Shown here piece by piece: positions 48,698 through 62,080 of a stretch of 62,080 bases of DNA. Position numbers and translations under genes: made by a program. How positions within the stretch are numbered: the first letter of the stretch is position 1; each line of letters begins with the position of its first letter. The notes under the pieces were generated by a model, which was given only the letters and a program-made list of their open reading frames with translations, ran no database searches and was not told the origin of the DNA. The DNA is from Elusimicrobiota bacterium (GTDB lineage Bacteria; Elusimicrobiota; Elusimicrobia; UBA1565; JACRDR01), in contig JBGFSC010000009.1 in NCBI GenBank assembly GCA_041694815.1, positions 1 through 62,080 of the forward strand, given 5' to 3'.

Positions 48698-49987
48698 ATG
48701 CTATCAAGTCGACGGAGGCACACGATCCCGACGGCCAGATTCCGCTCCTATGCCGCGTCGCTCAAGGCCGTTCCCGCGAAGGATTGGCGTGTCGCCGCCA
48801 TTGTCTTCCTTAACTTCTTCTTGATCATCGCCTGCTACGCGATGCTCAAGCCCGTGCGCAGCGCGCTCTTGGTGGCGCAATTGGGCGCCTCCTTCCTTCC
48901 CTATCTATGGTGCGCCTCAGGCGTCACGATCGCCCTGTTCGTGATGGTCTACAACCGGCTCATCGACCGGTTCCTGCCCCGGCTAGTCGTCATCGGCACG
49001 GCGGCCTTCTTCCTGGCGGTGCTCTACTTCACGCGCCGGGGCTTGGCCGGCGGGCTGTGGTGGGCGGTGCCGGCGCTCTACATTTGGTGCGACCTGTTCT
49101 CGATCGTGATGATCGAGCAGCTCTGGTCCTTGTCGGACGATCTCTTCAAGACGGAGGAGGCCAAATGCCTCTATGGGCTCATCGGTAGCGGCCCGATTTT
49201 CGGAGGCATCGCCGGCGGCGCGCTCGCCTCGGCGGCGGGACGGTATTTCCGGACGGAGGGGCTGCTGTCCTTGTCGATCGCGCTGCTCGTCGCCCTCATC
49301 CTATCGAGCGCGGTCCTCGCCTGGATACTGCACCGGCGCGGTTTCCGCCAGGAGCTGCGCCGCGGCGATTCCTTCAGCCTGCTCGAAGGCTTCAAGATGG
49401 TGTGGGCGAGCCGGTATCTGTCCTGGATACTTGCCGCCGTCGTCTTAAGCCAGGTCATCAGCAACATCATCGACCTCCAGTTCAATTACATGCTCGAGAC
49501 CCGCTTTTCCACGATCGATTCCCGCACTGCGTTCCTGGGGGCCTTCCACGTCTGGCTCAACCTGGGCAGCCTCTTCATCATGCTCGTGGTGACGCCTTTC
49601 TTCCATAACGCCCTCGGCCTGTTGCCGTCGCTGATGGCGCTGCCGGTGACGAATCTGGCCTGGCTGGCCGCCTCGATCCTCTACCCGGCGCAATGGACGA
49701 TGTTCGGGCTTAAATTCGCCGACAAGGGCCTCAATTACTCCATCAACCGCGCCACCAAGGAGCTACTCTACATCCCTACTTCTAAAGAAGAGAAATATAA
49801 GGCCAAGGCGGTCATCGACATGTTCGGCTACCGCGTCAGCGAGATGGCGGGGGCGGCCCTGGTGCTGCCGGCGCTGCGCTATCTGCCGATCATGTCCTTG
49901 GGGGCCATTAACGTGCTGCTCATCGCGGGACTCATCGCGGTCAATTGGCGGCTCAAAAGGGGCTACGATCGACTGGCGACCGCCTGA
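48698..49987 (+). CDS. Npt1/Npt2 (TLC-family) nucleotide transporter-like protein
   Basis: Y.MLKPVRS, QLWS...D, YSINRATKELLYIP and KYKAKAVID motifs. Confidence 0.8.
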   Translation: MLSSRRRHTIPTARFRSYAASLKAVPAKDWRVAAIVFLNFFLIIACYAMLKPVRSALLVAQLGASFLPYLWCASGVTIALFVMVYNRLIDRFLPRLVVIGTAAFFLAVLYFTRRGLAGGLWWAVPALYIWCDLFSIVMIEQLWSLSDDLFKTEEAKCLYGLIGSGPIFGGIAGGALASAAGRYFRTEGLLSLSIALLVALILSSAVLAWILHRRGFRQELRRGDSFSLLEGFKMVWASRYLSWILAAVVLSQVISNIIDLQFNYMLETRFSTIDSRTAFLGAFHVWLNLGSLFIMLVVTPFFHNALGLLPSLMALPVTNLAWLAASILYPAQWTMFGLKFADKGLNYSINRATKELLYIPTSKEEKYKAKAVIDMFGYRVSEMAGAALVLPALRYLPIMSLGAINVLLIAGLIAVNWRLKRGYDRLATA

Positions 49988-50128: not shown

Positions 50129-50803
50129 TTATTTTTGTAGAGCTCTTTGTGCCATCCGATGCAGATCTGGATCAGCAAGAGCTTGAAGTTTCTTTTTGAC
50201 GACACGCGAGAAATACTCTCTTTCTGTTTTATTCATGGGCTCGTGCCGGAGCCTCTTCTTGAGGAGATCCTTTTGTTTGGGTGAAAAAACTAGCGAGAGA
50301 AGAAAGGCATTCCGAAACTCCTCCCGGAGTTTTTCTTTTCCGGAGGAAGCATCATGCTCCTTTTGCCGGACGACGTAATTGAGAAACGTTGTCTTGAGGC
50401 GATCCAAGTCCAATTCTTTGCCGCCCGCCAGTTTTGCCGCATGACTTCCGGCGAGCTGTTTCTTGAATTCTGGCTCATCCTTTAGGCCGAGCTTTTTTGC
50501 CTTGTTGCGCAAATCCTCAAGGCCATACAGCTCGAACAGGAAGAGTGAGACCTGAACGAGCGCCCTTAGTTTTTTGCGCTCTTCAAGATTTCCAAGTTGA
50601 GCTTCTGCTTTCGCCAGATCCACCCCGGAGTCTTCGCGGCTCAATGCGTTGGCCAGAACGACAGGAAAGCCTTCGAGCATCCGCGTATTCTCGCTCTCGA
50701 CAAGGGAGGCGAGAAGATCGTTCGGATCGGCGTTCGGGCGCAAAAGAGGGTACCCGTACTCGTTTAGCGCGGCTGCAAGTGATGTAGAATCGTCGGATTC
50801 CAT
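50129..50803 (-). CDS. Hypothetical partner of the nucleotidyltransferase (putative antitoxin/regulator)
   Basis: Tightly coupled downstream of 50808..51380; C-terminal helical FSPKQK...TEREYFSR segment. Confidence 0.55.
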   Translation of the reverse strand: MESDDSTSLAAALNEYGYPLLRPNADPNDLLASLVESENTRMLEGFPVVLANALSREDSGVDLAKAEAQLGNLEERKKLRALVQVSLFLFELYGLEDLRNKAKKLGLKDEPEFKKQLAGSHAAKLAGGKELDLDRLKTTFLNYVVRQKEHDASSGKEKLREEFRNAFLLSLVFSPKQKDLLKKRLRHEPMNKTEREYFSRVVKKKLQALADPDLHRMAQRALQK

Positions 50804-50807
50804 TTGT

Positions 50808-51380
50808 TTAGTCCTCCAGGCGTTTTAATAAGAACGCCAGGTTTCCCAAAACACTCTGCTCATTGTTGACATACAACGCGGCCTCTTCATATCGACCTTT
50901 TAACTTTTCCACGTCGAAGACCTGGCCGCGGTTACGTATTAACCTCAGGCAGTCCTCGACGTCGACTTCCGTGCCCCTGAACATTTTGGTTATGACCAAG
51001 TCATAATCATTAAGAGCGCTGACCTCGAGCTTCTTAAAGGCTTTGATGGGGATATGGTTGCCTTTATCAAGTGGCGACTCGAGCAGCTCGGTCTGAAATA
51101 CCGTGTTGCCGGCGAATAGGTCGAATACTAGGCCGTCGCCCCGCGACCATCCACTGCCGCTCGTCGGGCGGTAATCAAGTTTTTTGAGTGTTCGAACCAG
51201 CTCTCGATACTCGTCGTCATGGGGGACAAGGAAATCGACGTCTTTAGTCGATTCCTTGAGGTCCTGGAGAGTAAGGGCCGTTCCACCGCATGCGACGACG
51301 CGGACTTTGCTCGGAAGGTAGGGATCCCATCCCTCAAGGACCGCCCAGAGGCCTTCTTTTGTGAGTCTGTAATTATTCAT
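50808..51380 (-). CDS. DUF6036/AbiEii-like nucleotidyltransferase
   Basis: GGTAL...TKDVDF motif; DLVITK; D..D. Confidence 0.75.
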   Translation of the reverse strand: MNNYRLTKEGLWAVLEGWDPYLPSKVRVVACGGTALTLQDLKESTKDVDFLVPHDDEYRELVRTLKKLDYRPTSGSGWSRGDGLVFDLFAGNTVFQTELLESPLDKGNHIPIKAFKKLEVSALNDYDLVITKMFRGTEVDVEDCLRLIRNRGQVFDVEKLKGRYEEAALYVNNEQSVLGNLAFLLKRLED

Positions 51381-51616: not shown

Positions 51617-51693
51617 CGCGGGGTAGAGCAGCCTGGTAGCTCGCAAGGCTCATAACCTTGAGGTCGCTGGTTCAAATCCAGCCCCCGCAACCA
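51617..51693 (+). tRNA. tRNA-fMet (CAT), initiator
   Basis: CGCGGGG...CTCATAA...GGTTCAAATCC...CCCGCAACCA; 77 nt; C1:A72 mismatch; encoded CCA. Confidence 0.95.
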
Positions 51694-51801: not shown

Positions 51802-52770
51802 ATGGGAAATGGCATCGGATACGCGCCGCAGAGCGTCAACCAAGTCCCCATAGGTAATGCCTCGGAGGCCTTCATGCTCCGATGCCACGCGCAGAATCTT
51901 ACCAATGGGACCATCACTTGGTACACCGACCTCCTGCGCCTCTGGAATAGGTACCTCGAGTCGAAAGGCGTGACCCTCGCCAAGGAGGTTACGCCGGAGC
52001 TCATCCGGTCCTATTTTGACGACATGCGCAAGCGCGGCCTGGCGTCAGGCACGATCGCGCACACCTACGGTGCGCTGCGCTGCTTCTTTGGATTCCTTGC
52101 GCGCGAACGGATGATCCCGCAGAACCCCTTCGCCCTGGTCGCCAAACCGCGGATGGAGAAGAAGCTCATCAAGCCGCTCTCGATGGATCAGGCGCGGTTG
52201 CTTCTGGCGGCCATCAACAAGCGGCCTTTCCAAGGACAGCGGCTTTGGACCATGGTTGTCCTAATTCTCGATACTGGCCTGCGCGTCGCGGAAGTCATGG
52301 GGCTCAGGATGGACGATGTGGACTTTCAGGTGGGAGCGCTGCGCGTGTTAGGTAAGGGCGGCAAGGAGAGGCAGGTTCCGTTTAGCTCCACGGCCAAGCA
52401 GGCGCTTTGGAACTACATCGCGCGGCGCGGGGAAATCCCGGGGCAAGACTTTGTTTTCGTCAGCCAATTCGGGCAGCCGCTGGACCGCTGCTGGATGAGG
52501 AAGGCATTGCGTTGTGTCAACCGCAGGCTCGGGCTCAAGGGAGTCCGTCTATCGCCGCATACCTTAAGGCATACCTTCGCGACACAATACATCATCAACG
52601 GCGGAGACGCCTTCAGCCTCCAGGCGATCCTCGGTCATTCGACGATCGATATGGTCAAGGTTTACGTGGCGCTCGCCAACCGGGACATTGCCTTGCTTCA
52701 TCGGCGCTTCAGCCCGATGGAACGCATGGGAGTCGTGCCTGGCAGCAGGCGCCGCATCATGATCCGCTGA
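51802..52770 (+). CDS. Tyrosine recombinase/integrase
   Basis: DTGLR, GKGGKER, HTLRHTFA and LGHS...Y motifs; adjacent to the tRNA 3' end. Confidence 0.92.
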   Translation: MGNGIGYAPQSVNQVPIGNASEAFMLRCHAQNLTNGTITWYTDLLRLWNRYLESKGVTLAKEVTPELIRSYFDDMRKRGLASGTIAHTYGALRCFFGFLARERMIPQNPFALVAKPRMEKKLIKPLSMDQARLLLAAINKRPFQGQRLWTMVVLILDTGLRVAEVMGLRMDDVDFQVGALRVLGKGGKERQVPFSSTAKQALWNYIARRGEIPGQDFVFVSQFGQPLDRCWMRKALRCVNRRLGLKGVRLSPHTLRHTFATQYIINGGDAFSLQAILGHSTIDMVKVYVALANRDIALLHRRFSPMERMGVVPGSRRRIMIR

Positions 52771-53453: not shown

Positions 53454-53876
53454 ATGAAGGTTCGCGTGATGCTGGTCCGTGAGGGCCGCTCAACCAAGAA
53501 AATCGAGATCGCGAGTCCCGCGCTGGCCTATCTCTTCCTCAGGCCAAAGGCCAAGGGGCTCGACCGCGAATATTTCTGGCGAATAGACCTCGATGCCAGA
53601 AATGTCGTTGCGTCCGTCGAGGTGTGCTCTATCGGTACCTTGGCGGCCAGCTTGGTCCACCCCCGCGAATTTTTCCTGGGGGCCATCTTGGCGAAATCGG
53701 CGAGCGTCATCTGCGCCCACAACCATCCGAGCGGGGAGCTATCCCCGAGCGCGGAGGACCGCGCAGTAACCCGCCGCCTCCAAAAGGCTGGGGAGCTTTT
53801 AGGCATACCGCTTCAGGATCATCTCATCGTAAGCGATGATGGCTTCTTTAGCTTCAAAGAGCGAGGGCTGCTCTGA
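53454..53876 (+). CDS. radC: RadC/JAB domain protein
   Basis: DREYF, VHPRE, AHNHPSG..SPS.ED and DHLI motifs. Confidence 0.9.
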   Translation: MKVRVMLVREGRSTKKIEIASPALAYLFLRPKAKGLDREYFWRIDLDARNVVASVEVCSIGTLAASLVHPREFFLGAILAKSASVICAHNHPSGELSPSAEDRAVTRRLQKAGELLGIPLQDHLIVSDDGFFSFKERGLL

Positions 53877-54427
53877 TGGCGGACTTTAAATCCCTCGAAA
53901 GGTTCATCCAAGATTCAAGCGGCCGGGCGTTCTTGGCCACCTATAGATTGGCTGGCAATCCTGAGGAGGCCGAGGAGCTTATTCAAGAGACTCTGTATCG
54001 GATCGTCAAGGGATGGGATCGCTATGATCCGTCGAGGCCGCTGGAAGGGTGGTTCATGACGATCATGCGCCACGCTTTCCTCGACAGCCGCCGGCGCCAT
54101 TCCGCTAAGCGCAATATGTCGATAAACTTGCCGCTCAGCGATGGGAAGACGACATGCGCCGACCTGCCATCCGGCGAAGAAGACATCTTGCGCCGATTGG
54201 AGCGCCAAGAGACTGCCGAGGCTGTTCGCAGGGCGGTCAATTCCCTTGGGCCGGAACAAAAAGCCGTCTTAATCCTTTGCGATTTCAAGCTCCTAAGACA
54301 TCGAGACGTTGCGCGCGTTCTTAAGCTATCGCTCGGCACCGTTCGATCCCGGCTTTTTCGAGCCAGGAGCATGCTTCGTCGTTCGGTTTTTCTGAGCGCG
54401 TTGACTGGAGTTGATATGCGGGCATAA
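53876..54427 (+). CDS. ECF RNA polymerase sigma factor
   Basis: AEELIQET, W...I.RH..LD and GTVRSRLFRAR motifs. Confidence 0.88.
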   Translation: MADFKSLERFIQDSSGRAFLATYRLAGNPEEAEELIQETLYRIVKGWDRYDPSRPLEGWFMTIMRHAFLDSRRRHSAKRNMSINLPLSDGKTTCADLPSGEEDILRRLERQETAEAVRRAVNSLGPEQKAVLILCDFKLLRHRDVARVLKLSLGTVRSRLFRARSMLRRSVFLSALTGVDMRA

Positions 54428-54666: not shown

Positions 54667-55341
54667 ATGACCAAGAGATTCTTGATCGGAGTTTTAGCCT
54701 TATTGGTCCCGGCGGCTCTCTCCATAGCCGGCCCCTGCGTGTCCCAGCGTCAATTCGAAGAGCAGGAAGCAGCGCGGCGGGCGCTGGAAGACGAGCGCCG
54801 CCGCCAGCAGGCCTATCAGAGCCTGCGCGAGCAATTCTGGATTCAGGCGATGGAGATGGAAAAAAAGCTCACCGCGCGCAAGGCGAAGGTTTTGGTGGAC
54901 ACCGAGCTCGTGACCCACGCGGCGATCAACGCCACGGTCAAGACCATGGATCTGCTCTGGCAGCGCTGGACGCACGAGGATCCTGGCAAGGATGCCGGCA
55001 AGGCCTGGGATAACACTTTAAAGGAGAACATGTCGCAGTGGCTCAAGCAATACGGCATGCTTGGCTCTTCCGAGGACTTGGATGCGCTCGTGGCCGAAAA
55101 CGCTCCGGCTTTCGCCGCGATCGCGGAGAAATGGCAGAAGGAGTTCGCCGTGTCCGAGAATCTTCAGGCCCAGGCCGTCAAAGTGCGTGAGGAGAACGCC
55201 CTGGCGATGCAGAGAGCCGGCGTGCGCATCGAAGCTGCGGCCGAGGAGGCGCGTAGCGCCACGCAGGAAACAACCGTTTCAGCCAGGAAGGAAGCCAAGG
55301 CCAAAAAGGAAAAGACCGCCGAAGGATCGGAGGGGAAATGA
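54667..55341 (+). CDS. Secreted helical hypothetical protein
   Basis: Signal peptide MTKRFLIGVLALLVPAALSIA; stop overlaps the next ATG (ATGA). Confidence 0.7.
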   Translation: MTKRFLIGVLALLVPAALSIAGPCVSQRQFEEQEAARRALEDERRRQQAYQSLREQFWIQAMEMEKKLTARKAKVLVDTELVTHAAINATVKTMDLLWQRWTHEDPGKDAGKAWDNTLKENMSQWLKQYGMLGSSEDLDALVAENAPAFAAIAEKWQKEFAVSENLQAQAVKVREENALAMQRAGVRIEAAAEEARSATQETTVSARKEAKAKKEKTAEGSEGK

Positions 55342-58088
55342 GCGTTCTCTTTTCAGCGATCGCGTTGCTCTGGCCGGCGCTTGGAATTTCCGTTTCTGCT
55401 TCAGCGCAGGCGGCGGCCGTCACTTCGGCCCAGGCGAGCTTCGAGGATTTCCTGCGCGAGAACTACGACAATCAAACCCAGCCCTTGGCGCGGGCGGTCT
55501 TGACCGACTTAAGCGCCCTTCCCGCGCGTCCCTTCGCCGGCCGCGCCGAGGAGGTCGGAGGCATCCTGGCCGTGCTGGCCCAGAAGCAGGGCCAGAAGCG
55601 TTCGGTGCTTCTGACCGGCCCATCCGGCATCGGCAAGGGCGCCTTGATCCAGCATCTGGCCTCCGAGGTGAAGGTAGGCAATCTTTCCTTAGACGCCAAG
55701 TTCCTGGAGCTCGACCTGGCCCGCCTGTCGGGCATGGCCTCGCAGATGGCTCCGGCGCCGGGCCAAAAACCTCCATTTGAGGCCTTCTTCGAGGATGTTT
55801 TGCCGCCCTTGCGCGACAAGGCGATCATCGTGATGAAGGGGATCGAGGGCCTGCTTCAGCCCGGCGCCAATAGCCAGTTCGTGGAGCGCCTGCGCAACCC
55901 GATGGAGCGCTCGGGACAGCGCTTCATCTTCCTTTTAGAGAACGATGCCTCGCTGCCGGCCGATCATTTCATCCGCAAATACGCCCAGAAGATCGAGCTC
56001 AAGGAGCCCGATGAAAAAGGCGCCATGACGATGCTTTTGGCCAACAAAGGCAATTGGGAGTCCGCCTATGGTCTCAAGATCAAGGACGAGGCCATCGAGG
56101 ACTTGGTCGGGGTTTCCAAGGAGTTCCTACGCCGCCTGCAGCCATTGGAGCTCATCGACAATATGGAGGCGGCTCTCCGGGAAAATCAGCCGGAGGCTCG
56201 CAAGAACACCGCGCGGGCCTCGGCCAATGATCTGTTCTCCCGGCTTTCGCTCGCCCTGGCGAAGTACCGCAGGACCCAGTCCCCGAAGGACTATAACGAG
56301 GTCCTGGCCCTGGCCAAACAGTTGGAGGCCGAGCGGGCGCGGCTTAAGGCGGCCGGCGAGGTAGAGCTCGATTCGCAACAGGTCAAGGAGATCATGGCGG
56401 AAATCTACGACAATCCCATGATCTTAAAGAGCGACGATTTCCGCAAAACACTGCTTGCGGCGGTGCCGAAAGTCCGCGCTGGCGTCGTGGGCCAGGATGA
56501 GGCGGTCAACGCCGTCAGTGCCGTGCTGAAAAACACTGCGGCGGGGCTCGTCAGCAACAAGCGGCCCTTGGGCTCGTTTCTGCTCCTGGGCCCTACCGGC
56601 GTCGGCAAGACCCAATTGGCCCGCGTGCTCGCTCGCTCGCTTTTCGGCGATGAGAACGCCATGGCTCGGCTCGACATGTCCGAATACATGGAAAAGCACA
56701 CAGTTTCCCGGCTTATCGGCTCGCCTCCGGGATACGTGGGCTACGGCGAGGGGGGCCAGCTTACGGAGGTGGTGCGCAAGCGGCCCTATTCGGTGATCCT
56801 GTTCGATGAGATCGAAAAGGCTCATGCCGATGTCTTAAACGTGCTGCTTCAAATCCTTGAAGACGGGCGCCTGACCGACGGTCAGGGCCGCACGGTCGAT
56901 TTCCGCAGGACGGTTGTGTTCATGACCTCGAACCTGTCGAGCCGGCTGATCCAGCGCATGCAGGAGCAGGGCAAGACGTTCGAAGAAATCCAGGCGGCGG
57001 TCAAGGAGGACTTAAAGGGCCAGCTCCGGCCGGAACTGATCGGCCGACTAGATAAGGTCATCGTCTTTACGCCGCTCAATCGTGACCAGGTGTTGGGCAT
57101 TGGCGAGCTTCTGGCTAATGAGGAGATCGCCAAGCCCCTGGCCCAGGGTGGCCACGAGCTGGGCTATTTAGGGAAGAACGTTCTGGCCCACGTGGCCGAT
57201 CATGGCGGCTTCGACCCGGAATACGGCGCGCGTCCCATGCGCCGCGCCATGCAGGAGCAGATCCGCGACGCGGTGACCCAACACCTGCTCAACCAATCCG
57301 AAGGTCCGCGGAAAATCTCGATCGACTTAAATAAAGAGGGCAGGATCGAGGTGAAAAGCGAGGCTTTGGCCAAGAAGGTCGAGTCCAAGAACGCTTTGCC
57401 GGAAGGTTTGGGAAGCATCTGGCTGAGGCATATCCTCGATCCCAATGTCTGGCAGGACATGACGGTGTCGGCCTTGAAAGCGGTTTATGAGAGCTTCGGC
57501 CAAAAGCCGCTGCAATCCCAGAAATTCGACAATTTCGGCCTCCAGATAGCGTCCCCTAAGGGCGAGACGGTCCATCAGCTCAAGGCCAAGCATATGGATG
57601 CCAACTTGAACGACCCTGCTTTGACCTCGGAGAAAGCCCCTGGCGGCGGGCTTTTCGGCTGGATGGACAAATTGCGCAAAGAGGGCTACGGCGATGAGGA
57701 GCTTCGGGCGATCCAGGCCTGGGCGGCCAAGGCCCTTCGCTGCGGCAAGAGCGCTGCGGCAGCGCAGGTGCCCTCCTCCAAGCTCACCTTGGAATGGCAG
57801 GATTCATCGCTCGGCCATGTTTTGAGGGTCGATGCCCCGCCGCTCAACGAGCAAGAATTGGCCGAGGCCTACGGCAGCTATGAGGCGCATTTCTCGAGAA
57901 AGCCAGGCTCGCTCGAGGAAACCCTTAAGGAATCCGACGGCCTGAGCGCCGAAGGCCATCGCAGCCGGGCGCAGCTCATGGAGATCAAGCGGACCCTAGG
58001 TCAGATCCCGAACGCCTACTTCGGCGCTTATTGGGACAAGAGCAATTCGACGTACTGGCTGCTCGTTCCTAAGAGGAAACAGTCATGA
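55338..58088 (+). CDS. ClpB/ClpC-like AAA+ ATPase with signal peptide and unique C-terminal extension
   Basis: D2: GQDEAV, GPTGVGKT, DMSEYMEKH, PPGYVGY, DEIEKAH, GARPMRR. D1: GPSGIGKG with degenerate Walker B. Confidence 0.85.
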   Translation: MSVLFSAIALLWPALGISVSASAQAAAVTSAQASFEDFLRENYDNQTQPLARAVLTDLSALPARPFAGRAEEVGGILAVLAQKQGQKRSVLLTGPSGIGKGALIQHLASEVKVGNLSLDAKFLELDLARLSGMASQMAPAPGQKPPFEAFFEDVLPPLRDKAIIVMKGIEGLLQPGANSQFVERLRNPMERSGQRFIFLLENDASLPADHFIRKYAQKIELKEPDEKGAMTMLLANKGNWESAYGLKIKDEAIEDLVGVSKEFLRRLQPLELIDNMEAALRENQPEARKNTARASANDLFSRLSLALAKYRRTQSPKDYNEVLALAKQLEAERARLKAAGEVELDSQQVKEIMAEIYDNPMILKSDDFRKTLLAAVPKVRAGVVGQDEAVNAVSAVLKNTAAGLVSNKRPLGSFLLLGPTGVGKTQLARVLARSLFGDENAMARLDMSEYMEKHTVSRLIGSPPGYVGYGEGGQLTEVVRKRPYSVILFDEIEKAHADVLNVLLQILEDGRLTDGQGRTVDFRRTVVFMTSNLSSRLIQRMQEQGKTFEEIQAAVKEDLKGQLRPELIGRLDKVIVFTPLNRDQVLGIGELLANEEIAKPLAQGGHELGYLGKNVLAHVADHGGFDPEYGARPMRRAMQEQIRDAVTQHLLNQSEGPRKISIDLNKEGRIEVKSEALAKKVESKNALPEGLGSIWLRHILDPNVWQDMTVSALKAVYESFGQKPLQSQKFDNFGLQIASPKGETVHQLKAKHMDANLNDPALTSEKAPGGGLFGWMDKLRKEGYGDEELRAIQAWAAKALRCGKSAAAAQVPSSKLTLEWQDSSLGHVLRVDAPPLNEQELAEAYGSYEAHFSRKPGSLEETLKESDGLSAEGHRSRAQLMEIKRTLGQIPNAYFGAYWDKSNSTYWLLVPKRKQS

Positions 58089-59098
58089 GAAACATTCCCA
58101 TGCACGCGATGAAGGCAACAAGGATGATGGTCTTGGCGGCACTGATAGGGCAACTTTATGCGCCGGTCTGGGGCTACGAGATCCCCGACGGTCCTACGGA
58201 GGACCAGAGCTTCGAGGCTCATTTCCTGAACGCCAAGCAAAAGGTGACGGAGGGCGCGGCCGCCCTGGCCCCGAACGGGCAAAAGAACGAGACGCCGGTC
58301 ATCTCTGACGGTCAGGCCGGCATCGAGGCGATGGACGGCAAGCGGGTAGGCCTGGCGGCGCGATTCATTACGATCCAGCCTGGGACCTTCCAGATGGGAA
58401 GCCCGAGCAATGAATCTGGGCGCTATGACAACGAGATCCAGCACTCGGTCACCCTGACCCGGGGCTTCGAGCTGCAGGCGACCGCCGTGACCCAGATGCA
58501 GTACTTCTTGGTCATGGGCCGTAACCCATCTTACTTTCACGCTCGCGAGAATTGCGATCAAAGCAATGCTCCAGGCGCCAATAATTTCCGGGTCATCAAC
58601 GGCGCGGAAATCTGCGTCGACCATCCCGTAGAGCAGGTATCGTGGGAGGACGCTCAGGAATTCATCCGGCGGTTGAATGAACTCCAAAACCAATACACGT
58701 ATCGCCTGCCCACCGAAGCTGAACGGGAGTACGCGACAAGAGCCGGGACCTTATCGAGCTATTCGTTCGGCTCAAGCGAGTCCGATCTGGGCGACAATGC
58801 CTGGTATTATGGGAACTCTAATAACCGCACGCACGCGGTGGCGACGAAGCGGGCCAATCCGTGGGGCCTCTATGACATGCACGGCAACGTATGGGAATGG
58901 GTGCAGGACTGGTATGGGGACTATCCAAACCAGAGTGTGACGGACCCTAAAGGCCCGAATACAGGCTCGTACCGCGTCATCCGTGGCGGCTCCTGGGGCA
59001 ACAGTGCCGGGGGCCTGCGGTCGGCGTTCCGCTACTACGGCGGCCCCGGCGGTCGCAGCGGCTATGTGGGGTTCCGCCTGGCGAGGTCGCGACGTTGA
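58085..59098 (+). CDS. Secreted FGE-sulfatase/CLec protein; DGR target 2
   Basis: FQMGS, RLPTEAE, DMHGNVWEW and RVIRGGSW..GFRLARS motifs; C-terminal VR. Confidence 0.93.
   Translation: MRNIPMHAMKATRMMVLAALIGQLYAPVWGYEIPDGPTEDQSFEAHFLNAKQKVTEGAAALAPNGQKNETPVISDGQAGIEAMDGKRVGLAARFITIQPGTFQMGSPSNESGRYDNEIQHSVTLTRGFELQATAVTQMQYFLVMGRNPSYFHARENCDQSNAPGANNFRVINGAEICVDHPVEQVSWEDAQEFIRRLNELQNQYTYRLPTEAEREYATRAGTLSSYSFGSSESDLGDNAWYYGNSNNRTHAVATKRANPWGLYDMHGNVWEWVQDWYGDYPNQSVTDPKGPNTGSYRVIRGGSWGNSAGGLRSAFRYYGGPGGRSGYVGFRLARSRR
58962..59085 (+). repeat. DGR variable region VR2
   Basis: Ungapped match to VR1/VR3; downstream hairpin ATCGCCC-GTAAA-GGGCGAT within 59162..59189. Confidence 0.9.
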
Positions 59099-59207
59099 AA
59101 TTTGAACCCTTGGACACTCGGCCCTTGGCGGGAATTTTCAGCCAGGGAAAGCGCAGCCGGAGCGCATCGCCCGTAAAGGGCGATCGCGCAGGCGGAGCGA
59201 ACGGAGC

Positions 59208-60269
59208 ATGAATAGGAGCAAACTTGAGAGAACAAATATGAAAGAGCGCGTGATGATCTTGACGATGACATTGAGTTTGGTCTGCTCGAGCTCTCGCGCC
59301 TACGAGATTCCCGACGGCCCCACCGAGGATCAGAGCTTTGAGGCTCATTTTCTCAAGGCGAAGCAGAAAACAGCCGAAACCGTTCAAAAGGTCGAGGAAC
59401 GCAGAGCGGATGAGGCAGGACCCGCGGCTCAGGTCGTAGCCGAAACCTTGAACGCCATCGATGCCTTAAACGGCCAGCGCGTCGGCATGGCGGCACGGTT
59501 CATCGCGATCCAGCCGGGAACCTTCCAGATGGGAAGCCCCGGCGATGAGGCAAGCCGCGACAACGACGAGACCCAGCACTCGGTCACCCTGACCCAGGGT
59601 TTCGAGATGCAGGCCACGCCGGTGACGCAGATGCAGTATTTCCTGGTCACCGGCCGCAATCCATCGAACTTTCGAAACCGGGAGAACTGCGATCCCAATA
59701 ACTTTCGCGTTGTCAACGGGCTCGGGTTCTGCGCCGAGCACCCCGTCGAGATGGTCTCCTGGGAAGACGCGCAGGACTTCATCCGGCGTCTTAACGAGAT
59801 GCAAAACCAATATACGTATAGGCTTCCAACCGAGGCCGAATGGGAATATGCGGCGCGGGCGGGCACCCAGCCCGGCTTTCCTTATTCGTTCGGTCATAAC
59901 GATACAGGCGAACTCGACAATTACGCCTGGTATTCGAACAATTCAGGCAATCGAACGCACGCGGTTGCGATGAAGCGGCAGAATCCTTGGGGGCTTTACG
60001 ACATGCATGGCAATGTCTGGGAGTGGGTGCAGGATTGGTTCGGAGCTTATCCCAATACGGGAAGCGGCGGCTTCTTGGGCATAGGTGGCAATAGAGGCAA
60101 TGGCGCTGTGACCGACCCTAAGGGCCCGAATACAGGCTCGAGCCGCGTCATCCGTGGCGGCTCCTGGTACCGCAATGCCGGGCGCCTGCGGTCGGCGAGC
60201 CGCCTCTACAGCGGCCCCGGCTATCGCGGCAGCTATGTGGGGTTCCGCCTGGCGAGGTCGCGACGTTGA
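59208..60269 (+). CDS. Secreted FGE-sulfatase/CLec protein; DGR target 3 (start possibly 59238)
   Basis: Same motifs as target 2; C-terminal VR. Confidence 0.93.
   Translation: MNRSKLERTNMKERVMILTMTLSLVCSSSRAYEIPDGPTEDQSFEAHFLKAKQKTAETVQKVEERRADEAGPAAQVVAETLNAIDALNGQRVGMAARFIAIQPGTFQMGSPGDEASRDNDETQHSVTLTQGFEMQATPVTQMQYFLVTGRNPSNFRNRENCDPNNFRVVNGLGFCAEHPVEMVSWEDAQDFIRRLNEMQNQYTYRLPTEAEWEYAARAGTQPGFPYSFGHNDTGELDNYAWYSNNSGNRTHAVAMKRQNPWGLYDMHGNVWEWVQDWFGAYPNTGSGGFLGIGGNRGNGAVTDPKGPNTGSSRVIRGGSWYRNAGRLRSASRLYSGPGYRGSYVGFRLARSRR
60133..60256 (+). repeat. DGR variable region VR3
   Basis: Ungapped match to VR1/VR2; downstream hairpin at 60326..60354. Confidence 0.9.
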
Positions 60270-60377: not shown

Positions 60378-60884
60378 ATGAAGCTCAAAGTGTTCACCCT
60401 GCGCATGAACCCGACGACAGGAAATTTCGATGACGCGGGGCTGTCGGAGTTTCAGTTAGGCAAGGACGTGCTGGAGGCGTCCGAGCACCTTCTCGTTCAC
60501 GAGAAAACCCCCACGCTGGTCTTGGTGTTGCGCTATCGGGAGGTCCCCGACGACAGGCGCTCGCCTGATGCCGCGCGCAAGGACTGGCGCGCGGAGCTGG
60601 ACCCCGCCGGCCAGCGGATTTACGACGAGCTGCGCCTCTGGCGCGGACGGCGGGCCAAGCAGGAGGGCATGCCACCGTATCTCATCCTCAATAATCGGGA
60701 ACTCGCGGAACTGGCCATGAAGAAGCCGACCAGTCTCGCCAAGCTGCAAGAGATAGAAGGCATCGGCGAGGCCAAGTCGCAGCGCTGGGGCGAGGAATTG
60801 CTCGGTCTCTTGGAAAAACTTGTCGCGCCCAAGGTGGAAACCGCAGCGGCCCCGGCTCAGCCGGGGGGGGGGGGTAATCTATGA
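60378..60884 (+). CDS. HRDC domain protein (DGR accessory)
   Basis: YDELRLWR...A..EGMPPYLILNN..L.ELA...P.....L..IEGIG..K...WG pattern. Confidence 0.88.
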   Translation: MKLKVFTLRMNPTTGNFDDAGLSEFQLGKDVLEASEHLLVHEKTPTLVLVLRYREVPDDRRSPDAARKDWRAELDPAGQRIYDELRLWRGRRAKQEGMPPYLILNNRELAELAMKKPTSLAKLQEIEGIGEAKSQRWGEELLGLLEKLVAPKVETAAAPAQPGGGGNL

Positions 60885-61225
60885 GCTCCGTGGAGCTTCC
60901 CCTCTTCGTCCATTGGACGCAAGTGCTCAAGGACATTTTATCGCGCACCGAAAAATTTCCCAAACGCGTTCGTTTTACCCTGTCTTCGCGCATCGATAAC
61001 CTGACGCTCGACGTCCTGGAAAAAATCGTCGAGGCGAGATACGCCAAGGACAAGGACGCCTCGCTCCAGCAGGCCAGCCTATATCTTGAGAAGCTTCGCG
61101 TGCTTCTTCGGATCAGCCATGAGGAGAAACATCTCGATCATCGCGGCTTTGAGCATGTGGCCCGCAATATCGACGAGGCCGGGCGCATGCTGGGCGGCTG
61201 GATACGGAGCAGAAAAGAAAAATGA
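60881..61225 (+). CDS. avd: DGR accessory variability determinant (four-helix bundle)
   Basis: KFPKRVRFTLSSRI, LEKLRVLLR and EAGRMLGGW motifs; overlaps the RT start. Confidence 0.9.
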   Translation: MSSVELPLFVHWTQVLKDILSRTEKFPKRVRFTLSSRIDNLTLDVLEKIVEARYAKDKDASLQQASLYLEKLRVLLRISHEEKHLDHRGFEHVARNIDEAGRMLGGWIRSRKEK

Positions 61226-61977
61226 AGCGAACCGGGCATCTTTTCGAGCAGGTCGCGGATTTCCACGCCCTTTGCGCTGCGGCCAGGCGGGCGGCGCGTG
61301 GCAAGGGCGGAACGCAGTCCGCGTCGTCTTTTCTATTCCACATGGAAGGCGAAGTGCTTCAGCTTCAGCGCGAGATATTGGATGGGACCTATCGCCCTCG
61401 CCAGTACCGCACATTCTACATTTCCGATCCCAAGCCTAGGACGATCTCGGCCGCAGATTTCAGGGACCGCGTGGCCCATCACGCCCTTTGCGCCATTTTG
61501 GAGCCGCTATTCGAACGGACGGCCATTGAGGATAGCTACGCCTGCCGAGCAGGTAAGGGTTCCCACCTGGCCGTGCAGAGGGCTCAATATTTCGCGAGAC
61601 GCTTGGGTCGCTTTCTGAAGCTCGATATCCGCAAATTCTTCGAGACCTTGGATCATGATGTGCTCAAGGCCGCCTTGCGGCGCATCATCAAAGACGAGCG
61701 CCTATTGGAGCTTACGGGCCGGATCATCGACCATGGCGCTCCGGGTTCACCGCGAGGCAGGGGGCTCCCCATAGGTAACCTGACGAGCCAGCATTTCGCT
61801 AACTTTTACCTCGGCCCGTTGGATCGCTTCATCAAGCAGGAGCTCCGCGTATTGGGCTATGTGCGCTATATGGACGACTTTCTGCTTTTTTCTGATTCCA
61901 AGGAGTTCCTGCGCCAAGCCCATCGGCGCATTTGCGAGTTCGTTGAAAGCGAGCTCAAGCCACTCCTGTCCGGTTAA
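61222..61977 (+). pseudogene. DGR reverse transcriptase, interrupted at 61960/61961 by an IS4 element
   Basis: PKPRTI...FRDRVAHHA, LKLDIRKFF, GLPIGNLTSQ..AN.YL and YVRYMDD motifs. The FLG motif and thumb are absent; the last codons PLLSG* come from the IS IR. Confidence 0.88.
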
Positions 61978-62080
61978 AGTTGGAGGCATAGCTGGAGGTC
62001 TTGACGCCTGAGGCGGTCGAGCCTTTTGGGGTTGAGGTGGAGCAGATCGAAAAGCGAGGCTCGCTCAAGCAAGGTTTCTT
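61961..62080 (-). mobile_element. Right (3') end of IS4-family element with transposase C-terminus
   Basis: IR CACTCCTGTCCGGTTAAA; the - strand frame ETLLERASLFDLLHLNPKRLDRLRRQDLQLCLQL* ends inside the IR at 61974. Confidence 0.82.

Follow-up and report, generated by a model that had tools for sequence, protein, structure and literature searches.

Operon organization and start sites

The window analyzed here is an entire 62,080-base contig (JBGFSC010000009.1) from the 2.77 Mb, 98% complete genome of an Elusimicrobiota bacterium. It carries a run of four genes; these and all features below lie on the forward (+) strand unless marked otherwise. The first (54667..55341) encodes a helical protein of 224 aa, counted from its ATG and called the 54667 protein below, and the second (55338..58088) a 916-aa ATPase derived from the Clp/Hsp100 class. 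Two targets of a diversity-generating retroelement (DGR) follow, target 2 (58085..59098, 337 aa) and target 3 (59208..60269, 353 aa, with a second ATG at 59238). Each target consists of a signal peptide, a short leader shared by the two, and a C-type lectin-fold (CLec) domain of the FGE type (PF03781, E = 1.9e-48 in target 2). Our data indicate that Elusimicrobiota have an undescribed family of large proteins with leaders, and that this operon is its split version.

The layout given in the original prediction, an earlier reading of this DNA, was borne out. ATGA overlaps join the 54667 gene to the ATPase gene (55338-55341) and the ATPase gene to target 2 (58085-58088), and target 3 follows after a gap of 109 bp. 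The first overlap falls in a short G/A run, with the ATGA one base from an in-frame join. A gene for an extracytoplasmic function (ECF) sigma factor lies upstream (53876..54427). Nothing but position ties this gene to the operon, and it was rejected as a conserved partner because a homolog occurs at one of 33 family loci. Scans for promoters and terminators stayed at chance level.

The original prediction depended on the ATPase starting ahead of its hydrophobic segment. ATG 55338 is preceded by a GGAGG site, and residues 31-64 are kept in relatives. Ahead of residue 31 there is just one alternative start codon, a TTG at codon 10, and it has no GGAGG-type site. A start beyond the hydrophobic segment was therefore rejected, and the ATPase start stays at 55338.

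Relatives of the operon are large fused proteins

An initial search covered 41 genomes (40 relatives and the window genome), many of which held Clp modules in open frames of 1,200-3,400 aa. Proteins of this family follow one domain order: leader, optional M50 protease, hydrophobic hairpin, a helical domain matching the 54667 protein, hairpin, Clp module, a domain that follows it (post-Clp domain), and a variable tip. The closest full-length relative, L011 (P0039, 1848 aa), is 54% identical over the ATPase part. It reads signal peptide, linker, M50 protease, hairpin, 54667 homolog, hairpin, Clp and post-Clp domains, Pro-rich linker, and FGE/CLec, which reproduces the domain order of the window operon within a single chain.

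Other close relatives hold parts of this arrangement. For example, P0034 contains a leader, M50, the 54667 domain, Clp, the post-Clp domain, and a non-CLec tail, while L177 has a leader, the 54667 domain, and the start of a Clp module at the contig end. L012 (P0032) consists of leader, Clp, and CLec, and L041 of leader and Clp. As to gene neighborhood, which the original prediction had named as a check, the 54667 domain precedes the ATPase in L011, P0034, and L177 (3 of 5 close relatives), and all relatives with this domain have it fused. The 54667 protein matched L011 418-606 at 44%, P0034 395-547 at 42%, and L177 from residue 5 at 36%.

The five relatives and the window formed a clade (support 100), and the sister group (support 84) included giants with a distant 54667-like domain in front. 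A tree of the second AAA+ module (D2) placed the window beside P0034 (0.93). It contained 87 of 132 candidates. Thinning removed 44 of the 76 usable unrelated canonical Clps, and one further candidate had no D2 match. As the fused state is found in close relatives and in the sister giants alike, fission from a fused ancestor is the parsimonious history. By this comparison, the 54667 protein and the ATPase are very probably one machine by descent.

The close clade is rare, occurring in 5 of 393 genomes of the class. Two database searches added three further clusters, two of which hold L011 and L012, and the split form was found in the window genome only among the genomes and databases searched. 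Scanning genome contigs also yielded 80 canonical Clp loci, used as controls and outgroup only. Metagenome and viral scans with a D1 alignment returned nothing, a second metagenome scan returned one weak locus that on re-check matched neither the ATPase nor the other operon genes, and plasmid and phage searches gave no match.

Some family members are far larger. A 17,755-aa open frame (L148, on G225:C37) was scanned over 6,666 aa, revealing two Clp modules along with M50, M14, zincin, and M48 peptidase domains. P0026 (3378 aa) carries a Clp plus post-Clp module, and its N-terminus presumably resembles those of Omnitrophota large proteins. A repetitive helical protein is encoded directly upstream of the leader-Clp gene both at L012 (12837-15971, - strand, in G006) and at L041 (3-1757, + strand, in G099).

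The 54667 protein itself was modeled as helical (pLDDT 88), and a fold search with this model gave no clear fold (best Z 7.9, to a helical protein). It begins with a K/R-led leader where the giants have a long N-terminal part. The hydrophobic N-terminus ends in G-x-C, with the Gly and Cys invariant in 7 of 7 aligned homologs. This Cys (window 54733-54738, codons 23-24) sits at the end of a hydrophobic hairpin. A lipobox has G, A, or S immediately before the Cys. A prolipoprotein lipobox was rejected because the Cys follows G-P, G-R, G-V, or G-T in the aligned rows.

An Hsp100-type ATPase with one intact AAA+ module

The ATPase carries two tandem AAA+ modules, D1 and D2, with Pfam matches to AAA_16 (65-125), AAA_lid_9 (226-312), AAA_2 (409-573), and ClpB_D2-small (595-654). 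The Clp N-domain is missing, as predicted: D1 starts near residue 60, which leaves no room for it, and Clp_N was not among the 25 Pfam matches listed out of 33. The middle coil is short.

Motif comparison separated the two modules. The stretch of D1 from Walker A to Walker B (55617..55847) contains GPSGIGKG and IIVMKGIE. The latter had been called degenerate and is so; Walker A is altered as well, and the Tyr pore loop is missing. The Walker B D-E pair and the Tyr pore loop are lost from D1 in all five clade members compared, and the GKT of Walker A in four of the five. D2 (Walker A to pore loop, 56589..56744) is intact, in agreement with the original prediction. It keeps Walker A (GPTGVGKT), the GYVGY pore loop, the Walker B DE, sensor 1, the Arg finger, and GARP (sensor 2). 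D1 thus looks catalytically dead, and these motifs argue that the protein is likely an active motor driven by D2 only.

The best NCBIfam match was ClpB (TIGR03346) at 404 bits against a cut-off of 1232, and ClpV/TssH (TIGR03345) scored 316 bits against 885. Type VI secretion genes were absent from the island genes scanned, no search of the whole genome having been made. No G-F motif of the ClpP-docking IGF loop lies between TSN and RPE of the window ATPase, and neither ClpP of the genome has a leader; a ClpP partner was rejected. By these defining tests, the sequence is not that of ClpB, ClpA/C, or ClpV.

The post-Clp domain models as a GHKL fold

The original prediction had reported about 240 aa of unrecognised C-terminus. 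Its extent held, with the last 236 residues (57378..58085) forming the post-Clp domain. It is not unrecognised, since it is a conserved domain that models as a Bergerat (GHKL) fold of the SpoIIAB/RsbW/SiaB-like type (pLDDT 86). Structure comparison matched the model to SiaB (6kko, Z 10.7, root-mean-square deviation 3.5 over 148 aligned), SpoIIAB (1l0o, Z 10.3), and RsbW (6m36, Z 10.0), and Foldseek matched it to 1til (E = 4.6e-3). Sequence searches had been uninformative: a first homolog search with ATPase residues 660-916 returned only the ATPase itself, the ESM Atlas gave no usable match, and solved structures gave nothing real.

GHKL ATPases bind ATP through motifs known as the N, G1, and G2 boxes. 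The alignment of the post-Clp domain had no conserved Asn-Ala, DxGxG, or GxGL. As the boxes are not recognisable in the alignment, the domain may not bind ATP. An anti-sigma role was rejected because the domain lies behind a leader and sigma genes are missing from the family loci.

The domain marks the giant family. It was found in 38 of 401 genomes of the phylum, all of one class, in open frames of up to 17,755 aa. Among 1.84 billion representatives there were 31 matches. Sixteen of these were scanned with Pfam, and all 15 long ones carry Clp-type AAA domains.

DGR targets and their possible link to the ATPase

Both CLec genes are true DGR targets. Over the 124 nt compared, the variable repeat of target 2 (58961..59084) has 19 mismatches to a template repeat on contig C31, all at the 31 adenines of the template and none elsewhere. 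The repeat of target 3 (60132..60255) has 17, again all at template adenines with none elsewhere. The same template has a remote target at window 11264 (15 mismatches at template adenines, 0 elsewhere). The accessory genes HRDC (60378..60884, PF00570) and Avd (60881..61225, NF033474, 94.1 bits against a cut-off of 80) follow target 3. They precede the 5′ part of the reverse transcriptase (RT) gene (61222..61960, RVT_1), whose 3′ part lies with the template repeat on C31. The genome holds a second, intact DGR on contig C37 with its own template and CLec target, and no Clp gene lies beside that target. FGE genes on contigs C8, C38, and C40 of this genome (G000) end in repeats like the variable ones, with 10-19 non-adenine mismatches to both templates, and are probably former DGR targets. 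Targets 2 and 3 alone share a leader of about 23 residues after the signal peptide (window 58175-58242 and 59301-59368, 84% DNA identity), a candidate docking tag.

A CLec of the FGE type is fused as the tip in two of the four close relatives with a visible tip (L011/P0039 and L012/P0032). The original prediction would have lost its footing if homologs of the ATPase never co-occurred with FGE or DGR genes. The FGE half of this link is present in those fusions, and no relative has the ATPase together with a DGR. The genome contains 11 FGE matches. Assuming about 2,600 genes, we roughly estimate the chance of a CLec gene being coupled directly behind the ATPase at ~0.4%.

Protein-level comparison suggests that the CLec tip is exchangeable in the L011 species, with an assembly chimera as a possible source of the pattern. 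Up to residue 1589, P0039 does not differ from P0033; beyond it, 192 of 259 residues agree. The P0033 tip recurs in P0040 and P0041, whose bodies differ from that of P0039 at 1 and 10 positions, respectively. Of the two CLec tips borne by this giant (L011 2603-8149), one contains a duplicated segment close to the end. A search of G010 for a template repeat of the L011 tip found none. In a tree of FGE domains, from which the L012 tip and the C37 target were left out, the window targets grouped with the genome's other FGE genes and not with the fused tips.

Our data suggest that the CLec-Clp pairing recurs without being obligatory, with DGR control seen only in the window genome. That the window CLecs functionally serve the window ATPase is an evenly balanced proposition, and direct CLec-ATPase binding is doubtful. 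A complex prediction of D2 and the post-Clp part with target 2 (score 0.00, mark 0.32) was counted neither way. As originally suggested, the CLecs may act as adaptors, and the machine may work inside a host or prey cell.

Leaders across the family

Leaders were scored with a simple heuristic of our own (an uncharged hydrophobic 11-mer) in place of SignalP. The four signal-peptide-like N-termini of the original prediction all passed (2.15-2.79). The ATPase leader (55338..55409, aa 1-24) has a hydrophobic core score of 2.18 and ends in an A-S-A site, but it lacks positive charge and corresponds to a hairpin in the interior of the giants. Among family or own-genome proteins, 31 of 41 have a leader, several misses resembling fragments or falling just below threshold, against 2 of 71 canonical full-length Clps. 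Many family leaders read K/R, hydrophobic stretch, (S/T)PG, x, and A-x-A. L012 and L041 have a leader and no transmembrane segment detected before D1; by ordinary Sec rules their motor would be exported. The exported module that had been predicted is thus plausible at the level of the family, less directly so for the window ATPase given its hairpin-like leader. Export of the ATPase itself remains plausible.

Other ATPases of the window genome have leaders too. Eleven of its 72 P-loop open reading frames passed the test: four Clps, Lon, FtsH, adenylate kinase, a double-AAA_5 protein, and three expected membrane proteins. The adenylate kinase gene (G000:C9 74299-74958, +; L190:2300-2956) lies tail to tail with that of a 1573-aa leader-bearing Clp. 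Two further leader-bearing Clps (G000:C2 22715-25135 and C15 3073-5367) have both rings intact and IGF-like loops (LGF and VGF). The C15 protein groups with canonical Clps, so leaders may have arisen more than once. The double-AAA_5 protein (G000:C20 63843-66542, -; L192) is 899 aa long, and its domains are MoxR/dynein-related. A distant member of the TLC/NTT ATP/ADP-transporter family (window 48698-49987, +; Pfam E = 4.7e-19) lies just outside the island described below, and a second TLC-type gene follows the leader-bearing FtsH on C9.

Island context

The operon lies in an integrated element whose left end is a tRNA-Met(CAT) gene (51617..51693). A tyrosine integrase (51802..52770, PF00589, E = 2.6e-37) and a RadC-like JAB gene (53454..53876, PF04002) precede the ECF gene. 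At the other end of the window, a multicopy insertion sequence (IS) interrupts the RT gene (61961..62080), and its 9-bp target duplication is shared with C31. Such 9-base duplications link the window contig to C31 and then to C54, two IS-broken contigs on, where a copy of the tRNA-Met 3′ part is found. The island stretch also holds a TraG/VirB4-type ATPase, a coupling-protein domain, a TrbI-like gene, a second integrase, and two AbiEii genes. With its tRNA-Met ends, integrases, and conjugation genes, the element resembles an integrative and conjugative element. Beside the tRNA, a DUF6036 nucleotidyltransferase gene and a partner of unknown function (window 50129-51380, -) form a toxin-antitoxin-like layout.

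Proposed mechanism and alternatives

We propose that fission of a modular Elusimicrobiota envelope protein gave rise to the 54667 protein and the ATPase, and that the separate CLec genes would supply what two relatives carry as a fused tip. The ATPase would assemble into a membrane-tethered hexamer that threads or remodels proteins by D2 alone, with D1 serving as scaffold. Because it has neither the Clp N-domain nor the ClpP loop, attached modules would choose the substrate, and the CLec would be the aiming module. The site of action would be the envelope or a cell-contact site, outside the producer's cytoplasm. Capture next to a DGR would have turned slow tip exchange, as in the L011 relative, into hypermutation. 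The comparisons above show common descent from fused giants, loss of the D1 catalytic motifs with retention of those of D2, the GHKL fold, DGR mutagenesis of both CLecs, and the island setting. Hexamer formation, activity, location, and binding are the steps that we infer. Taken whole, this membrane-tethered, D2-driven threading or remodelling ring with a CLec aiming part outside the producer's cytoplasm is tentative, falling a little short of an even bet. For the narrower statement that the machine lies beyond the inner membrane, the balance tips slightly in favor. The boldest version is improbable: exported Hsp100 polyproteins with internal hairpin/signal segments and exchangeable tips, one of which a conjugative element wired to DGR-hypermutated lectin-fold adaptors to give an antibody-like, ATP-driven unfoldase that acts past the inner membrane, either in the periplasm or inside a host or prey cell with which contact has been made.

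A number of observations weigh against this proposal. About 40 aa are inserted in the fused CLecs, which the tree separates from the window targets (support 0.99). FGE domains are widespread in the order, being present in 74 of 101 genomes, many of them within long open frames. Only 2 of 33 family loci have one. RT, Avd, and HRDC occur at none of the 33 family loci, RT was not found in either fusion genome (G010 or G006), and G099 has the ATPase with no FGE match. The internal branch order of the close clade is unsettled in the D1+D2 tree (support 43-65). As the RT is interrupted by the IS, diversification in cis may have stopped.

Topology raises the remaining objections. The n-region of the ATPase leader has a net charge of 0 against +1 to +6 in the other passing family leaders, and it aligns inside L177 from residue 11, at the internal hydrophobic hairpin of the giants. 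The 54667 leader likewise aligns inside P0034 (from residue 16) and L177 (from residue 5) as an internal hairpin. By these alignments, neither leader is an independent export signal. Among M50-bearing giants, K/R exceeds D/E before the first (M50) hairpin in 16 of 17, and in S2P proteases the loop after HExxH is described as entering from the cytoplasmic side (PMC4597795). Charge pattern and loop both point to a cytoplasm-like face for the soluble domains. If the leader were cleaved, however, these domains would end up outside. This conflict is the most interesting point of the topology. It would be met by insertion into another cell's membrane, or by a leader that acts as an anchor only. ATP supply is a further difficulty. 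With a profile that scores them weakly, TLC-type carriers were detected in 5 of the 38 genomes holding the post-Clp domain and not in G010. They were rejected as a general ATP source, and a self-made periplasmic ATP pool is unsupported as a general explanation.

A motor facing the cytoplasm would need no extracytoplasmic ATP. Leaders and hairpins would then be anchors, and the proteins would resemble sensor-NTPase conflict systems (CLec with MoxR, STAND, or AAA domains): the binder would sense a foreign molecule, and the ATPase would remodel or set free an effector such as the M50 protease. GHKL folds and Clp motors are normally cytoplasmic, and positive charges flank the hairpins, including the 16 of 17 before the M50 hairpin. 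Published cases also include AAA+ and STAND ATPases that have a DGR-diversified CLec as neighbor or fusion partner (PMC10907252, PMC5758913). Yet the family leaders resemble cleavable Sec peptides (K/R, hydrophobic core, Pro/Gly, and mostly A-x-A), a second hydrophobic segment that could return the ATPase inside is missing from L012 and L041, and the window CLecs, with their own signal peptides, would lie across the membrane from it. We regard this arrangement as improbable. The ATPase operon and the DGR could instead be independent island cargo. The CLecs would then be diversified binders of the usual kind, at the surface or in the periplasm, and the coupling would serve only to share a promoter. 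Indeed, each target is a gene of its own with its own leader, and the two cluster with other FGE genes of the genome; their template also serves the remote target, the C37 target lacks a Clp neighbor, and no relative joins Clp and DGR. Coupling through ATGA at the position where two of four close relatives carry a fused CLec is nevertheless hard to obtain by chance, and this explanation is unlikely.

The split between the 54667 and ATPase genes might also have arisen by recent frameshift or assembly error, or mark a remnant in decay. One chain would then be the true product, now or in the past, and the second "signal peptide" an old internal hairpin. An ATGA overlap is by construction one base off an in-frame join, and here it falls in that short G/A run. 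The 54667 domain is fused in every relative that has it, the island has taken IS insertions, and the split form is known from one genome. Such an origin is nonetheless quite improbable: the ATPase ATG has a GGAGG site in front of it, the two genes are intact in all other respects, every D2 motif included, and the K/R-led 54667 leader that replaces the long N-terminal part of the giants implies at least one real rearrangement.

Significance and comparison with known systems

The accepted view places bacterial Clp motors in the cytoplasm and holds the periplasm to be free of ATP. Leader-bearing Clp polyproteins restricted to one class either break this rule or reveal an unknown membrane topology or targeting route, and the split 916-aa version is small enough to express, which makes the question testable. 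To our knowledge, few DGR targets have an identifiable partner. The swapped CLec tip of a relative and the DGR-mutated CLecs of the window point to a motor with a replaceable aiming part, and the family offers a handle on the lifestyle of these uncultured bacteria. What is new is the family of leader-bearing Clp polyproteins, in the window split and coupled to DGR targets; its component parts are known. The literature searched described neither an exported or giant Elusimicrobiota Clp nor a Clp coupled to DGR targets, and supplements of PMC5758913 and 10.1101/2023.11.21.568195 may list such architectures.

The ATPase shares its tandem AAA+ architecture and D2 motifs with class I Hsp100/Clp proteins (ClpB TIGR03346, ClpA, ClpC, ClpV/TssH). 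In contrast to these, it falls far below their cut-offs, lacks the N-domain, D1 motifs, and IGF loop, and has a hydrophobic leader and a GHKL-fold C-terminus, while its family normally occurs in chains of 900-17,000 aa. Clp-type motors outside the cytosol include mitochondrial Skd3/CLPB and the torsins of the endoplasmic reticulum, which have a single D2-like ring and work in ATP-supplied compartments. Plasmodium HSP101, of the PTEX translocon, is a ClpB-type motor outside the cytosol that unfolds cargo and threads it through a pore (PMC6550532). Compared by description only, HSP101 differs in working in a eukaryotic compartment with an ATP supply, and no pore partner was identified for the window ATPase.

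The giant membrane proteins of Omnitrophota are likewise very long and multidomain. They combine a signal peptide and numerous hydrophobic segments with proteases and with enzymes that normally reside in the cytoplasm; cleavage has been proposed for them, and their topology is described as uncertain (10.1101/2023.11.21.568195, PMC10066038). They belong to another phylum and have another domain set, and most members of the window family are 1,200-3,400 aa long. Neither "Clp" nor "M50" appears in the main text of 10.1101/2023.11.21.568195. The retroelement corresponds to DGR architecture C, exemplified by Treponema denticola TvpA, with the same HRDC, Avd, RT, template repeat, two adjacent and one remote FGE target, and adenine-specific change (PMC5758913). 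It differs from the architecture described there in that its first target is translationally coupled to a Clp-derived ATPase and its RT is IS-interrupted.

In its working, the window system appears most like the CLec-plus-NTPase systems of PMC10907252. These comprise MoxR/VMAP ternary systems, STAND-CLec proteins, and AAA-CLec fusions of Candidate Phyla Radiation bacteria, where a diversified CLec is likewise placed behind or fused to an AAA+ or P-loop ATPase. Their ATPases are of MoxR, STAND, or midasin-like type and mostly predicted to be cytoplasmic, and the main text of that paper does not contain "Clp". The window motor, by comparison, is of Hsp100 type, and all parts of the system bear hydrophobic leaders.

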